This document shows, piece after piece, positions 27,435 through 32,095 of a stretch of 64,000 nucleotides of DNA. Position 1 is the stretch's first letter. The number at the start of each line of letters is the position of its first letter. The stretch is from Candidatus Altiarchaeota archaeon. GTDB taxonomy: Archaea; Altiarchaeota; Altiarchaeia; IMC4; SCGC-AAA252-I15. The notes under the pieces were generated by a model. It had not been told where the DNA came from. It saw only the letters and a program-made list of their open reading frames with translations, and did no database searches. The translations under genes and the position numbers were made by a program. The stretch covers positions 32,307 through 96,306 of the forward strand of contig JAZDMS010000035.1 in NCBI GenBank assembly GCA_043800705.1, read 5' to 3'.

Positions 27435-28628
27435 TTATAAGCTGCCGTCAAACACCTTCAAGGCGCAGTATTTGCCGCACATGCTGCATTCCCCGCCTTT
27501 CTCGTGTTTCCCGCGCGTCTGCCCGGCCCAAGGATCAATGGCGTTTTTGAACATTGTCTTCCAATCCAGCCGCCTTCTGGCCTTGCTCATCGCATCGTCC
27601 CTCTCGGTGCGGCCTAGTTTCACGATGTCGGCTGCATGGGCTGCGATCTTCGACGCTATCACACCCTCCCTCACGTCCTCCACGTCGGGTAGGCCTAGGT
27701 GTTCGCTCGGGGTTACGTAGCAGAGGAAGTCTGCGCCATACATGCCTGCGACCGCGCCGCCGATGGCGGACGTTATGTGGTCATGACCCACTCCAATATC
27801 GGTCACCAGCGGGCCGAGAACATAGAAGGGGGCGTTGTGGCAGACCGCCTTCTGAAGCCGCATATTGTATTCTATCTGGTCGAGGGGGACGTGGCCCGGG
27901 CCTTCGACGATGACCTTCACTCCGTGCTCCCATGCGCGGGAGGTGAGCTCGCCTAACACCTTCAATTCGGAAAGTTGCGCATCGTCTGTGGCGTCGCGGA
28001 TGCACCCAGGCCTTAGGGCGTCTCCGAGGCTTACGACGACGCCGTATTCAGCTAGGACTTCCATTATCAGGTCGAATCCGATATATAGGGGGTTTTCAGC
28101 CCTATTCTTCATCATCCAGGCCGCCAGGAAGCAACCACCCCTGCTTGTGATCGGGATAGTCCTCTTCTTGGCGTACATTATCCCCTGGAGGGTCAATCCT
28201 GCGTGGATGGTCATGAAATCCACCCCGTCCCTGCACTGCTCTTCGATCTCCTTCAGGTAGTCCTCTATCGTGAATTGCAGGCGCTTATGGGCATAGACCT
28301 GGTAGATGGGTACGGTCCCCAGTGGAACGTCCATTTCCGCCAGAAGCCTCCTCCTGGTCTTCGGAGTATTGCCGTCGACGCTCAAGTCCATCAACGCATC
28401 AGCTCCGGCCTCAACCGCCACCCTGGCCTTCCTCAGCTCCCGGACCATGCTGCTGCCGTCCGGCGACGTCCCTATGTTGGCGTTGACCTTAGTGGAGATG
28501 CCGGCGCCGACGGCCATCGGCTTGATCCTACGCCGGGGATTCCCGACGACTACGACGCTGCCGTCCCGGACACGCCGGGCCAGCTTTGTCTTCGAAATCC
28601 CCTCATCCTTGGCGACCTTATCCAACAT
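27435..28628 (-). CDS. thiC: Phosphomethylpyrimidine synthase
   Basis: KVNANIGTS, MDLS, SRGG, EGPGH, YVTPSEHL, CSMCGKYC. Confidence 0.96.
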   Translation of the reverse strand: MLDKVAKDEGISKTKLARRVRDGSVVVVGNPRRRIKPMAVGAGISTKVNANIGTSPDGSSMVRELRKARVAVEAGADALMDLSVDGNTPKTRRRLLAEMDVPLGTVPIYQVYAHKRLQFTIEDYLKEIEEQCRDGVDFMTIHAGLTLQGIMYAKKRTIPITSRGGCFLAAWMMKNRAENPLYIGFDLIMEVLAEYGVVVSLGDALRPGCIRDATDDAQLSELKVLGELTSRAWEHGVKVIVEGPGHVPLDQIEYNMRLQKAVCHNAPFYVLGPLVTDIGVGHDHITSAIGGAVAGMYGADFLCYVTPSEHLGLPDVEDVREGVIASKIAAHAADIVKLGRTERDDAMSKARRRLDWKTMFKNAIDPWAGQTRGKHEKGGECSMCGKYCALKVFDGSL

Positions 28629-28751
28629 TTTCGAAACTATTATACGGCAAACCCTATATACTATGAGCTCAAATAAAATAAGCTGATAACATTCGGGTTA
28701 AGCTTTATAATCGGATAATCCATATCAGATAACCCAATCGATCGCCATTAA

Positions 28752-28859
28752 GCCCACGCGAAGCAGCCGTTTAAGGCTGGCGAAGTTGCCATTGCAGACT
28801 CGCGAGGAGGAGTCGCAAGACATACTGCAGGGCAGTATGAAGACCTTCGCCCCCGGGGC
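28752..28859 (+). ncRNA. tRNA-like multi-hairpin unit A
   Basis: Begins GCCCACG like tRNA-Arg. GCGAAG/CTTCGC closure with three internal hairpins. Its tail is homologous to unit B. Confidence 0.5.
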
Positions 28860-28898
28860 TCGAGGCCACAATATTAGACAAAAAAAAATTAAAAAAAA

Positions 28899-28971
28899 GC
28901 CCACGTGTGGTAGCGGATATCCCTGCAGCCTTACTAAGGCTGGCTCATTTATCATCTTCGCCTACGTGGGC
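28899..28971 (+). ncRNA. tRNA-like unit B (pseudo-tRNA, ACT in loop, no T arm)
   Basis: Acceptor GCCCACG/CGTGGGC and D region nearly identical to tRNA-Arg; CAGCC-TTACTAA-GGCTG arm. Confidence 0.6.
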
Positions 28972-29009
28972 TCGATGACACAACAAAAGACAAAAAAAAC
29001 CAAAACAAA

Positions 29010-29081
29010 GCCCACGTGGGGTAGCGGATATCCTGGTGGCTTGCGGAGCCGCAGACTCGGGTTCGAATCCCGACGTGGGCG
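29010..29081 (+). tRNA. tRNA-Arg(GCG)
   Basis: GCCCACG/CGTGGGC acceptor, GTGGC-TT GCG GA-GCCGC anticodon arm, TCGGG-TTCGAAT-CCCGA T arm, G73, no encoded CCA. Confidence 0.95.
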
Positions 29082-29107
29082 TATCGTATCACGACAAAGG
29101 GAATTCT

Positions 29108-29398
29108 TATCACGAGCACGTCGGGATGTCACAACCTCGAAGGTTGTGCATAATCCCGACGTGGGCGCCAATTCATATCACGATATCACGGGCAGGTCGG
29201 GATGACATGGCTCCGCAGAGTCATGGAATCCCGACGTGGGCGCGAAGTAAGGTCACGAACACGTCGGGAGGTCGCAGCATCGCGGGTTGTACAGAGTCCC
29301 GGCACGGACGCTTAAGGCCATACAGATTGCGAATCCGCACCATAGGCGGCCGGGATGTAAAAAGCCGAATGTTTTTTAGTAAAATCCCGACGTGGGGG
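29108..29398 (+). repeat. Four hairpin repeats each ending in a copy of the tRNA-Arg 3' end
   Basis: AATCCCGACGTGGG at 29152, 29227 and 29383, degenerate at ~29295. Each is preceded by an antisense (CAC)GTCGGGAT-like arm. Confidence 0.9.
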
Positions 29399-29400
29399 CA

Positions 29401-29423
29401 TCTTCTGTTTTGGGTTTTTATTT
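29401..29423 (+). terminator. Oligo-T tract after the tRNA array
   Basis: tcttctgttttgggtttttattt, consistent with an archaeal T-rich terminator. Confidence 0.4.
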
Positions 29424-29445
29424 GGCTGTGCGTAGTATGTGTCCT

Positions 29446-29964
29446 ATGGGCGAGGATGAGGGGGTTATTTGGGTCAAATCGTCCGCTGACATCCCCAGGA
29501 ACGATTTTCTCAATTTCAGCCCGCAGGAGCTGAAGGCCAGATATCCGAAGATTCCGTTGGAGGATTTGCTCCTTCAGAGGCATATCTTCTTCCCGAGGAA
29601 GTTTTCGCTGCCGCCTCAGGTGGACAAGGCCACGTTGAAGTACAGGCAGAACCTCATCCTTAAGGGGCCTTCTGACCTGAAGGATTCCATTTTCTTGGAT
29701 ATGCCGGTTGAGGATATCAACAGACAGTTCCCCCAGTTCTCCCCTGAGGATATTGCCGGGGAGAAGGCTGTCCGGGAGGTGCGCCAGCTCATGAAGAAGA
29801 TCACCGGCAGTCTGAAAAGCAGGGACCTGAATACGAAGGATAATGTGCTTGCCGACATCTCGAAGGCGAGGCGCAGCCTCGCGAACGCGTCATCCTCATC
29901 GGAGGAGATGGTTAAGGCGATGCAGTGGATCCTTCAGATCGAGGAGAACGTCAACCGCTGGTAG
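29446..29964 (+). CDS. Hypothetical protein
   Basis: Open frame with genome-typical codon bias; no recognised motif. Confidence 0.7.
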   Translation: MGEDEGVIWVKSSADIPRNDFLNFSPQELKARYPKIPLEDLLLQRHIFFPRKFSLPPQVDKATLKYRQNLILKGPSDLKDSIFLDMPVEDINRQFPQFSPEDIAGEKAVREVRQLMKKITGSLKSRDLNTKDNVLADISKARRSLANASSSSEEMVKAMQWILQIEENVNRW

Positions 29965-29969
29965 CTGGC

Positions 29970-30662
29970 TCACACAGCCTTGTCGGGGTAGATTATCCTG
30001 TATACGCCGTATATGGAGGACATCAGCGAGGCTATTGAGAATGAGAATACGAAATATACAATCAGCTTTACGGGCCATGCCTCTACGTCGAAGCTGTCCA
30101 TTGGCAGGAGTATGAGGAGCGAGAAGAATATGGATACGAATAGGAAGAGGAACTGGTTAGATATGATCAGCTTGATCTTTTGCTCCTCCTTCATGAGAGA
30201 TGATAGGGTGACGATGCTGTATTGGACCGCTCGGTAGTTTGATTCCATCCGCTTGTGCCCCTCCCCCCATCCGCGGAGATAGTCGAGGAATTCGTCGTCG
30301 TTGGAGAATATCTTGGAGAAGTCCGGGTCCGCGATCCTGCGGATGAGCTCCTTGCGTATCTGGACGATCTTGTTCTTGATGGTCTCGATGTAGAATATGA
30401 GGAATGCTCCGAGGATGCCGACCATCGCCGCGTAGCCTTGGGCGATGCTCGAGAACAGGTACCTGAGCGATTCGAGGCGGAAGTACACGGCAGGATAGGT
30501 GAGTAGGTCAAATAGCGCAAGAAGCAGTGTGAAGCTGATCGAGAACAGCAGTATGGATATGTGCTTGTCAGGGTATTTGAGGAATATCAGGGTCGTCGCC
30601 AGGGCGAACACTATGGGCAGAATCGAAAGCGGCAGTGCGATGCATATCGGGTCTAATGCCAT
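29970..30662 (-). CDS. Membrane hypothetical protein
   Basis: About 5 TM segments flanking a charged loop. Confidence 0.72.
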   Translation of the reverse strand: MALDPICIALPLSILPIVFALATTLIFLKYPDKHISILLFSISFTLLLALFDLLTYPAVYFRLESLRYLFSSIAQGYAAMVGILGAFLIFYIETIKNKIVQIRKELIRRIADPDFSKIFSNDDEFLDYLRGWGEGHKRMESNYRAVQYSIVTLSSLMKEEQKIKLIISNQFLFLFVSIFFSLLILLPMDSFDVEAWPVKLIVYFVFSFSIASLMSSIYGVYRIIYPDKAV

Positions 30663-30979: not shown

Positions 30980-32095
30980 ATGGGCGGGCCCCCTTGCGAG
31001 TATTTCGGCGTTTGCGGAGGATGCTCCCTCCAAGGCGTCGAATACGGGGCGCAGGTCGGGCGCAAGAGGAGGATGCTGGCCGACGCACTCGGATTCGAGG
31101 ATGTGGAGGCCCATTCCCTTGGCGAGTTCTCCTATCGGACCAGGATGGATTTCGCCTTCCACGGAGGAGGGCTTGGTTTCCGTCGCAGGGGCAGCTGGAG
31201 GGAGTTCTTCGATGTCGAATCCTGCATGATATCCAATCTGAGGATCAACGATCTGCTTGCGGAGTTGAGGGTGTTTTTCAAGGAGGTGGACGCATTCGAT
31301 CCATCCTCGCATGGGGGAACATTTCGTTATGCTATCTTGAGGGCTCCGGGGGACGATTCATCGGTCTCGTTCGTCCTCAACAAGGATTCTCCGAGGCTTG
31401 CGGGGGCGCTGGACAGGGTTAGATCGTTCGCTTCGTCGACGTCTGCGGAGAATGTCATGGCAGCATACGTCCCGTCCCGGACTGATGCGAGCCTGTCACG
31501 CGACTATGAGGTCGTCAAGGGGGGTGATATGCTTTCTGAGTCATTCCTCGGAAAGGCGTTCAAGTACCACATCCAGGGCTTTTTCCAGAACAACCACGGA
31601 GTCGCGGAGCTGATGCACTCCTACTGCCGCAGGCTTCTCATGGCGCATGATACGCGAAGCGCTCACCTTTTGGACCTGTACGGCGGGGCTGGTACGTTCG
31701 GCATAGTCAACTCCGACCTTTATAGGTCCGTGAAGATCGTGGAATCAGATCCGGGGTGCATCGGTGCCGCGCGCATGAACATCGAAGCCAATGGAGCGGG
31801 GAATGCGGAGGCCGTCCTGTCCGACGCCAAATTTTTAGGCCGGCTGGACCTGCCAGTTCCGGTCCATGTCATAACCGATCCGCCCAGGGCTGGGATGCAT
31901 CCCAAGGCGGTGAAGCGGCTTCTGGAGATGAGGCCGGATGTTGTCGTCTATGTGTCGTGCAACGTCAGGCAGCTGGCCGGGGATATCCGAAAATTTTCAG
32001 GCTATGATGTGGTGAATGCCGCATTATTCGATATGTTCCCGCAGACGCCGCACATCGAGGCTGTGGTTGAGCTCAGGCGACAGGCCAGAGAGTGA
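30980..32095 (+). CDS. TrmA/RlmD family RNA uracil-C5 methyltransferase
   Basis: CEYFGVCGGC Fe-S motif, FFQNN, LDLYGGAG, DPPRAG, YVSCN, DMFPQTPHIE. Confidence 0.92.
   Translation: MGGPPCEYFGVCGGCSLQGVEYGAQVGRKRRMLADALGFEDVEAHSLGEFSYRTRMDFAFHGGGLGFRRRGSWREFFDVESCMISNLRINDLLAELRVFFKEVDAFDPSSHGGTFRYAILRAPGDDSSVSFVLNKDSPRLAGALDRVRSFASSTSAENVMAAYVPSRTDASLSRDYEVVKGGDMLSESFLGKAFKYHIQGFFQNNHGVAELMHSYCRRLLMAHDTRSAHLLDLYGGAGTFGIVNSDLYRSVKIVESDPGCIGAARMNIEANGAGNAEAVLSDAKFLGRLDLPVPVHVITDPPRAGMHPKAVKRLLEMRPDVVVYVSCNVRQLAGDIRKFSGYDVVNAALFDMFPQTPHIEAVVELRRQARE

Follow-up and report, generated by a model that had tools for sequence, protein, structure and literature searches.

Repeats of the tRNA 3′ end downstream of a tRNA gene are classic integration scars, and several described systems carry such repeats or comparable hairpins. 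In Escherichia coli, the distal repeats of tyrT/tyrV (RtT RNA) are tandem units of about 178 bp that come after the tRNA and each re-create the tRNA 3′ segment. Folded attachment sites (att sites) of the CTXphi type (attP) work in a single-stranded replicon, with dif as the target and Xer as the enzyme, and integron attC sites consist of an outer stem, an asymmetric internal loop and a variable apical stem, with core sites R″/R′ of the form RYYYAAC / GTTRRRY. Plant mitochondrial t-elements and the 3′ETS-leuZ sponge of E. coli (ETS, external transcribed spacer) are structured RNAs located by or in the tRNA transcript. Published work describes integrases of the pTN3 type that act at archaeal tRNA genes (PMC5495485), and, for CTXphi, two opposed target-like sites that fold with their spacer into the hairpin used as recombination substrate (PMC3089051; PMC3442271; PMC4792948), the integration leaving one functional site and two non-functional chromosomal copies (PMC3089051). 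In this study, we describe an array of four hairpin units behind tRNA-Arg(GCG) in a 64,000-nucleotide stretch of a Candidatus Altiarchaeota archaeon (GCA_043800705.1, contig JAZDMS010000035.1, positions 32,307 to 96,306), which is called the window hereafter and whose source genome, designated G000, is a metagenome-assembled genome of 2.0 Mb in 43 contigs. Each scar found here bears a conserved module with an arm tailored to the respective tRNA, and our literature search, which was limited in collection and terms, found no account of tRNA-specific anti-tail hairpin modules. The reading that we favour, and that we judge to be evenly poised between right and wrong, is that four copies of an insertion module, which is specific to this lineage and targets tRNA gene 3′ ends, are stacked in the array.

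The functional tRNA-Arg(GCG) gene is at 29010–29081 on the plus strand, assigned by ARAGORN and by the Rfam tRNA model RF00005 (56.7 bits), and its final 16 nt (29066–29081, AATCCCGACGTGGGCG), which we call the tail, are repeated downstream. The tail word AATCCCGACGTGGG occurs four times in the window (29066, 29152, 29227 and 29383), against a mean of 0.05 in shuffled sequences, none of 100 shuffles reaching four. The antisense word CACGTCGGGAT has seven matches in the window with one mismatch at most, against 1.66 expected, and three of the seven are left arms on the plus strand (29117, 29193 and 29260). A covariance model of the family, designated R1, sets the four units at 29106–29167, 29182–29242, 29249–29310 and 29336–29398, and reproduces the four ends proposed in an initial annotation that had been made by a model from the letters alone. 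Fold z scores against shuffles are −5.88 and −5.44 for units 1 and 2, and 0.05 and −0.33 for units 3 and 4; the first two units are intact and the last two are decayed.

All parts of the four modules lie on the plus strand. The trailer of module 1 (29082–29116) closes with the conserved box CTTATCACGAG at 29106–29116, as seen in the sequence and in the alignments A1 and A2. The hairpin that follows (29117–29167; −32.6 kcal/mol) belongs to the C-type defined below, which has no T-run, and is composed of a left arm exactly complementary to the tail (29117–29127), an inner hairpin CACAACCT/AGGTTGTG (29128–29151) and a tail copy identical at 16/16 positions (29152–29167), after which CCA follows. 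Module 2 (29168–29242), also without T-run, has a short trailer with TATCACG boxes, a left arm with one mismatch (29193–29203), an inner hairpin (29204–29226) and another 16/16 tail copy (29227–29242); in its 3′ half, the unit reproduces, with alterations, a longer stretch of the 3′ half of the tRNA (repeats D15 and I1). Module 3 (29243–29310) has the box GGTCACGAA and is 76% identical to unit 1 (repeat D2). It is a hybrid: the left arm (29260–29270) is the complement of G000's own tail, and the right arm (29295–29310, AGTCCCGGCACGGACG) agrees with that tail at 11/16 positions by manual count and is nearer to the tRNA-Arg tail allele of the congener G001. Module 4 (29311–29398) is of the A-type, with a left arm (29346–29356) that pairs at 7/11 positions and resembles the arm of the congener, an inner hairpin containing a T6 run (29372–29377) that is the first run of five or more T (T5+) after the tRNA, and a tail copy identical at 15/16 positions (29383–29398); the one unit at the G001 locus is probably its orthologue. 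The flank beyond the last tail copy (29399–29419, plus strand) contains T4 and T5 runs and, as judged from its sequence and from comparison with tRNAs without units, is likely to be the displaced native terminator region.

What the initial annotation had pointed out at this locus is confirmed, with some qualifications. Antisense left arms are found at 29117, 29193 and 29260, but the arm of unit 4 pairs only at 7 of its 11 positions; likewise, sense tail copies start at 29152, 29227 and 29383, but that of unit 3 has diverged. The G-CCA at the end of unit 1 is present (29167–29170) but absent from the other units. The word GGCTCCGCA in unit 2 (29209–29217) is indeed the exact complement of 29042–29050, for which we estimate a chance expectation of about 0.07 as a 9-mer complement, but it sits in the altered copy of the tRNA 3′ half. 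The inserts had been described as different and yet each foldable; pairing is kept throughout the family, but in the window only units 1 and 2 beat shuffles.

The family exists and is tied to tRNA genes, its arm pairs with the tail, and its copy number varies among relatives. With R1, we have found 18 sense units in G000, 16 in G001 and 2 in G007, a genome of a different genus. The remaining 58 of the 61 related genomes searched, among them G002–G004 of the genus of G000 (70–88% complete), have no unit; within this genus, units are present in two of five genomes. One pattern scan recovered 12 metagenome contigs with 20 further units, and a search with the last 14 nt of each tRNA revealed a downstream copy behind many other G000 tRNAs. 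In G000, 13 of the 18 units are contiguous with eight tRNA genes (Arg-GCG, Arg-TCG, Arg-TCT, Ala-GGC, Gly-GCC, Gly-TCC, Val-GAC and Val-TAC), and four of the other five come after a tail copy. At 22 further loci, 31 of 37 units are 21–33 nt behind a co-oriented tRNA assigned by ARAGORN or behind another unit; the other six include two behind an incomplete tRNA where the locus L201 ends (judged by eye), two at a contig start (L204) and two behind inserts of 0.5–0.9 kb. Nearly all units are 24–26 nt behind a co-oriented tRNA, in arrays of 1–4, and 12 isoacceptors are served: Ala (TGC, GGC), Arg (GCG, TCG, TCT, CCT), Gly (GCC, TCC), Val (TAC, GAC), Gln and Ile. The same boxes and inner hairpin subtypes are found behind these 12 different tRNAs, in three genomes plus metagenome contigs. 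At orthologous tRNA-Arg(GCG) loci, where the gene adjoins ThiC wherever visible, the number of units is 0 in five other genera (G019, G025, G026, G036 and G040), 1 in G001, 2 in the locus L206 and 4 in the window. The search of relatives suggested in the initial annotation has in this way yielded both homologous tRNA-linked arrays and covariation.

The order of parts is constant in the family: the tRNA, a trailer of about 24 nt, the box CGTCTCACGAA, an arm of 11 nt that complements the tail of the same tRNA, ATG, the inner hairpin, ..GA and the tail copy, which runs from A58 in the T-loop to the discriminator. The modules measure about 65–90 bp and conserve the trailer boxes ATAGTATC, CGAAGCGA and CGTCTCACGAA, the last of which contains the recurring TATCACGA motif that had been noticed initially. 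The anti-tail arm complements the T-loop end, the T-stem 3′ strand and the first bases of the acceptor 3′ strand; it pairs with tail positions 59–69 only, and the last 4–5 nt are unpaired. Two subtypes of the inner hairpin, the A-type TAAAAAGnn..nnCTTTTTA with a T5–6 run and the C-type CACAAGnn..nnCTTGTG without T-run, are linked by compensatory changes at two pairs. The units fold with an internal loop of the 1x4 type, in which the C-type has tandem GA on both strands and the A-type has GU; a K-turn at this loop was considered and set aside. A small hairpin in the trailer shows compensatory changes as well; fold-back priming at this hairpin was considered and rejected because the predicted sequence was mismatched.

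The structure is maintained while the sequence varies, and the arms follow each tRNA's own tail. R1, which is based on A1, a MAFFT alignment of 17 units, gave 62 matches over 33 loci, corresponding to 56 distinct rows (50 sense and 6 antisense). In the 56-row alignment, which is fitted to the model and includes the six antisense matches, 85.8% of cells pair and 14/18 pairs are altered on both sides; neither value is matched in any of 500 shuffles, and slid registers come nowhere near the observed pairing. The MAFFT alignment of 17 units has 9/18 pairs altered on both sides. In the 11-bp outer stem of the 50 sense units, 485 of 550 cells are Watson-Crick pairs, 24 are G.T and 10 are A.C. Covariation between arm and tail extends to the acceptor part (CG, UA and GC at columns 13/94 and 16/91), and the match therefore exceeds the symmetry inherent in the T-stem. 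The arm behind tRNA-Val has C at the place of U5 in the tRNA 5′ strand, and so it is no copy of the 5′ acceptor strand. Among 13 rows chosen for right arms that differ from the tRNA tail, the left arm fits the tRNA tail in eight by manual count; the view that the left arm follows the tail of the live tRNA more closely than it follows the right arm of its unit was dropped, because departures from the tail over 44 units number 38 in left arms versus 19 in tail copies.

We have preferred an insertion or recombination module to a conserved host RNA gene on the basis of the patchy distribution, the copy numbers of 0, 1, 2 and 4, the foreign tRNA alleles in some arms, the toxin-antitoxin islands and the displaced T-run terminators. 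Decayed copies, hybrid-allele arms and cargo islands between tail copies are observed directly. At L206, one allele is found in the live tRNA and the two left arms, and the allele of the G001 type in the two right arms and a displaced upstream head. The terminators can be compared between tRNAs with and without units. Nine unit-less tRNAs have a T5+ run at +3 to +12; in six of the eight unit-bearing tRNAs the first such run is at +60 to +66, within the first unit, and in the remaining two it is at +291 (unit 4) and +173 (just past unit 2). T-runs are frequent just after the last tail copy, and in most units the inner hairpin contains the first T5+ run, ahead of the right arm. This pattern looks like an original [tail][T-run] opened to [tail][module][tail][T-run], and the T-run of the A-type inner hairpin probably now terminates the tRNA transcript. 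As for cargo, segments of 1.1–1.6 kb between tail copies and modules in G000 contigs C30 (behind tRNA-Gln) and C9 (behind tRNA-Arg-TCG) encode a pair resembling VapC and a ribbon-helix-helix (RHH) protein and a GNAT toxin-like open reading frame (ORF), and L199 has a segment of about 0.9 kb with a nucleotidyltransferase (NTase)-like ORF, flanked by a tail on one side and by a full module on the other.

These islands (G000 C30:606-3900, G000 C9:72918-74050 and L199:83-1000) hold toxin-antitoxin-like genes between tail copies, namely a PIN/VapC-like gene with its RHH partner, a GNAT toxin-like gene with a small partner and the NTase-like ORF, and in addition a gene for a 447-aa membrane protein. 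The names were read from the translations, with no family search behind them; the two cargo ORFs scanned against Pfam, a 120-aa ORF behind tRNA-Gln and the L199 ORF, gave nothing above cut-off. A separate observation concerns the tRNA-Arg(GCG) genes of the window, L008/L031 (G001), L030 (G003) and L206, in which acceptor pairs 5–7 and one T-stem pair differ by compensatory changes, the variants among these close relatives being ACG/CGT, GTG/CAC, ATG/CAT and GCA/TGC. Turnover of this tRNA is unusually fast for one genus and may be linked to module-driven replacement of the tRNA end.

If the insertion module is the correct explanation, modules would enter at the tail by site-specific recombination or transposition, and the downstream tail copy (16 nt, from A58) would represent the recombination core or a target duplication. 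The hairpin made of anti-tail, inner stem and tail would be the enzyme's site of action, possibly folded in single-stranded form; arrays would grow through further insertion and unequal crossing-over, and the A-type hairpin would take over as the tRNA terminator. The history of the window would then be that units 1 and 2 are recent, that unit 3 carries the tail of another tRNA-Arg allele, and that unit 4, shared with the congener, is the oldest. The initial annotation had doubted that att remnants carry antisense arms; we have revised this doubt, as the antisense arm is a constant part of the inserted module, and its mention of single-stranded DNA recombination sites as one option fits the reading favoured here. 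A more specific version, which we think unlikely, regards the hairpin as a folded attachment site of gene-less or cargo-bearing archaeal integrative modules that would pass through a single-stranded intermediate as CTXphi attP(+) and attC do. The arm and the tail copy would then imitate the double-stranded end of one tRNA gene and serve as a base-pairing "address", by which insertion would be aimed at tRNA tails and could be retargeted through a change of the arm.

Several results weigh against the insertion module. The binned contigs of five genomes (G000, G001, G003, G004 and G007; 74–92% complete) were profile-searched for mobility enzymes. Cas1 (PF01867), looked for as the mark of a casposon, was found in none of the five, and neither was the Y1 HUH transposase (PF01797) looked for in the case of an IS200/IS605-derived palindrome-associated transposable element (PATE) or repetitive extragenic palindromic (REP) element. 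RVT_1 (PF00078) was likewise found in none of the five; a primer-binding-site mimic or retroelement was rejected on this result and on the arm stopping short of the tRNA 3′ end. The TnpB-type family (PF07282) gave one weak sub-threshold match, in G007 only, and the SSV-type integrase (PF16795) gave none in G000, the sole genome scanned for it. The only PF00589 member is an Xer-like tyrosine recombinase of 272 aa in G000 (C17:175-993), which stands amid housekeeping genes; the other four genomes have none, no tyrosine recombinase was found near any array, and no integrase adjoins any array. We found no case in which exactly the same flanks enclose an empty site in one sequence and a filled one in another, and no enzyme seen accounts for an anti-tail arm that matches 12 different tRNAs.

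The distribution of the sequences themselves provides further points on the same side. The modules group by tRNA type across genomes; since they do so and keep the trailer boxes and the trailer hairpin, they are not the product of a recent burst and are under some constraint. Viral contigs without any unit are another such point: the family pattern had no match in IMG/VR, and a looser pattern gave five contigs with no real unit under R1 (best E 0.0075, an AT-rich partial match). The search of viral contigs with the inserts, as had been suggested initially, returned no exact match for those of units 1 and 2. The constant spacing from the tRNA, the stability of the sense strand and the excess of G.T over A.C pairs are equally expected of a selected RNA. 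Of 50 units, 43 are more stable when folded as the sense strand (mean difference −2.4 kcal/mol), which is only a hint and no test because the units are akin to one another. In all three mixed arrays (window, G000 Val-TAC and G001 Val-TAC), the C-type stands ahead of the A-type, an order that fits transcription logic. Among five transcripts truncated at the T-run, two are predicted to form pairs between the arm and the tail of the same tRNA.

The explanation that draws most on these points is an RNA element of the tRNA 3′ trailer that the host has selected and that is co-transcribed with the tRNA; we regard it as somewhat unlikely, and a host RNA role, or an insertion domesticated as terminator and trailer RNA, is a live rival of the insertion module. 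According to this explanation, the C-type would be transcribed whole, and RNase P, RNase Z or the CCA enzyme would free it in the form of minihelix-like hairpins. The A-type would end at the U-run and yield a trailer RNA, about 65 nt long, with a single-stranded anti-tail that can pair with the 3′ end of its own tRNA; the element could act in processing control, as a sponge or decoy, or as a terminator. Co-orientation with the tRNA at a constant gap, covariation of both helices, the strand stability and pair counts given above, the T-run within the unit at +60 to +66 with the C-type in front of the A-type, the conserved trailer boxes with their covarying small hairpin, and the arm-tail pairing predicted for truncated transcripts are all consistent with it. 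However, kinship of the units inflates the strand statistics, the family is lacking in 58 of 61 relatives, three of the five genomes of the genus among them, and copy number is variable with some copies decayed (two of four in the window). In addition, the right arm of the A-type is past the T-run, so a complete minihelix would rarely be transcribed, and replacement of the T-loop makes T-loop-dependent recognition unlikely. A search of sequencing runs for 28600–29700 found no RNA run that contains the stretch.

Less probable again, and decidedly unlikely in our view, is a local origin without any mobile element, in which the ends of highly transcribed tRNA genes would be duplicated by replication slippage, a template switch or unequal crossing-over. 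Intrastrand template switching (quasipalindrome correction) would next turn the copy into a palindrome, which would yield arm-tail complementarity and apparent compensatory changes without selection. The perfect tandem duplicate units in L204 and L169 are in keeping with it, as are the empty search for mobility enzymes and the fact that tail copies are nearer to the tRNA than left arms are to its complement (19 and 38 departures, as above); the right half of a unit can also be read as T-arm plus acceptor 3′ strand, and the left half as its inverted copy. However, the occurrence of the same non-tRNA boxes and hairpin subtypes behind 12 tRNAs, in three genomes and on metagenome contigs, points to one origin that spread rather than to many local accidents, and foreign alleles in the arms and cargo islands bounded by the same modules also stand against a local origin. 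An artefact of assembly is scarcely credible: although the source is a 43-contig metagenome-assembled genome and short tandem repeats are prone to mis-assembly, the four units differ from one another, the same design is present in the independent assemblies G001 and G007 and on 12 metagenome contigs, and contig pieces of a public DNA run (five short pieces, none bridging the array) cover the tRNA and 29315–29467. Two other candidates were rejected by eye, namely a bulge-helix-bulge intron or a split tRNA (no part of the tRNA is missing, and no two 3-nt bulges 4 bp apart were seen) and a C/D or H/ACA guide RNA (no such boxes were seen).

The tRNA flanks contain other repeat designs besides this family. 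The arm-hairpin-tail architecture is shared by two more sequence families of unrelated inner sequence, so that one architecture exists in at least three unrelated sequence families. The second family, GGGTTGATAAGGGC-loop-GCCCTTATGTTCA, stands ahead of tail copies of tRNA-Thr, Leu and Ile, and the third, of the type GGTTGAGATT..GCCCC-loop-GGGGC, is behind tRNA-Pro(GGG); their sites are G000 C39:8098-8470, C29:31520-31765 and C22:58861-59010, and C2:19280-19400. Upstream of the tRNA-Arg gene of the window, two pseudo-tRNA units are present on the plus strand at about 28752–28868 and about 28899–28979 (repeats D4–D6, D8 and D10). In each, the 5′ head of the tRNA is copied, in many cases together with the D-arm; the other parts are an arm that is nearly palindromic (CAGCC-TTAnTAA-GGCTG), a hairpin of the form CGAAGG..CTTCG and a short acceptor-3′-like end with TCGATGRC, after which an A-rich leader copy follows. 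One or two units of this design also occur upstream of tRNAs in L028, L030, L203 and L206 and on G000 C23, C35 and C30, and they are found in G003 too, though this genome has no type A units.

Near the array itself, the neighbours are ThiC, two ORFs (29446–29964 and 29970–30662) for which Pfam gave nothing above cut-off, and a gene resembling tRNA (uracil-5)-methyltransferase (30980–32095, plus strand; PF05958, E 4.8e-19), whose position 1.6 kb past the array is probably coincidence. Elsewhere in G000, at C24:1772-2270, ARAGORN reports a "tRNA-Stop(tta)" with a 99-nt intron, and two units of about 150 nt before it repeat its 5′ head; the intron contains aaagaaagaaa hairpins also found in other tRNA flanks. 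Hairpins of the cttt/aaag type (ctttctttc..gaaagaaag) are seen in G000 tRNA introns and flanks (for example C30:235-300, C22:58865-58930 and the C39 intron), where short tandem motifs of the gaagac/gtagac type likewise recur.

What follows for archaeal biology depends on which explanation is right. If the hairpin is a recombination site, it would represent a compact archaeal recombination system whose address is written in base pairing, and the insertion module would help to explain the build-up of toxin-antitoxin islands and the swaps of tRNA alleles at Altiarchaeota tRNA loci. If the RNA is functional instead, every such tRNA gene would co-express an RNA antisense to its own 3′ end, for which we know of no precedent. 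On both views, the A-type hairpin appears to serve these tRNA genes as their terminator.

When the locus is compared with the systems introduced at the outset, the nearest formal analogue is tyrT/RtT, where tandem units behind a tRNA likewise re-create its 3′ end. The modules here differ in size (65–90 bp), in having an antisense arm, which to our knowledge is absent from the tyrT/RtT repeats, together with an inner hairpin, and in standing behind at least 12 tRNA species. The RtT model (RF00391) had no match in the window at gathering score and none in 28600–29500 at E up to 10; cmscan of the latter region gave the tRNA and three unrelated sub-threshold families (mascRNA-menRNA and two snoRNAs). 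With t-elements and 3′ETS-leuZ, the modules, as RNAs, would share mimicry of the acceptor/T-arm helix or possible action via base pairing; compared with t-elements and minihelices, an 11-bp helix is present, but a helix replaces the T-loop and the distribution is patchy. Miniature inverted-repeat transposable elements and REP elements, including bacterial interspersed mosaic elements, are similarly short, gene-less, hairpin-forming, multi-copy, lineage-restricted and sometimes tandem. The copies here are tRNA-bound instead of dispersed and have target-specific arms in place of constant terminal inverted repeats, and a partner transposase of the Y1 or REP-associated tyrosine transposase (RAYT) type was not found in the genomes searched.

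Mechanistically, the modules come closest to att duplications at tRNA genes and to the att sites of the folded kind known from CTXphi and integrons. As in att duplications, direct repeats from A58 in the T-loop to the 3′ end are stacked, three 14–16-nt copies with one mismatch at most and one diverged copy being found in the array, and toxin-antitoxin islands lie between repeats at other loci. The differences are that no integrase or element genes stand beside the repeats, that the "element" is only 50–75 bp, and that an inverted core copy is present 23–30 nt upstream of each distal repeat. An integron attC in the strict sense was rejected, because the arms are tRNA tails rather than GTTRRRY and no tyrosine recombinase is near the arrays. 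From CTXphi and integrons the modules differ in that the target is the tRNA tail instead of dif or attI, that the arms differ per tRNA, and that neither a filamentous-phage gene nor IntI was found. Nevertheless, the units share with attC the outer stem, the asymmetric internal loop and the variable apical stem, and inverted target copies with a spacer are present beside one junction, forming the 11-bp stem that is so largely Watson-Crick over the 50 sense units. The resulting layout of live tail, element, inverted tail, spacer and tail copy, which within the insertion reading is what a folded single-stranded attachment site would leave on integrating, is analogous to that of CTXphi at dif (PMC3089051).

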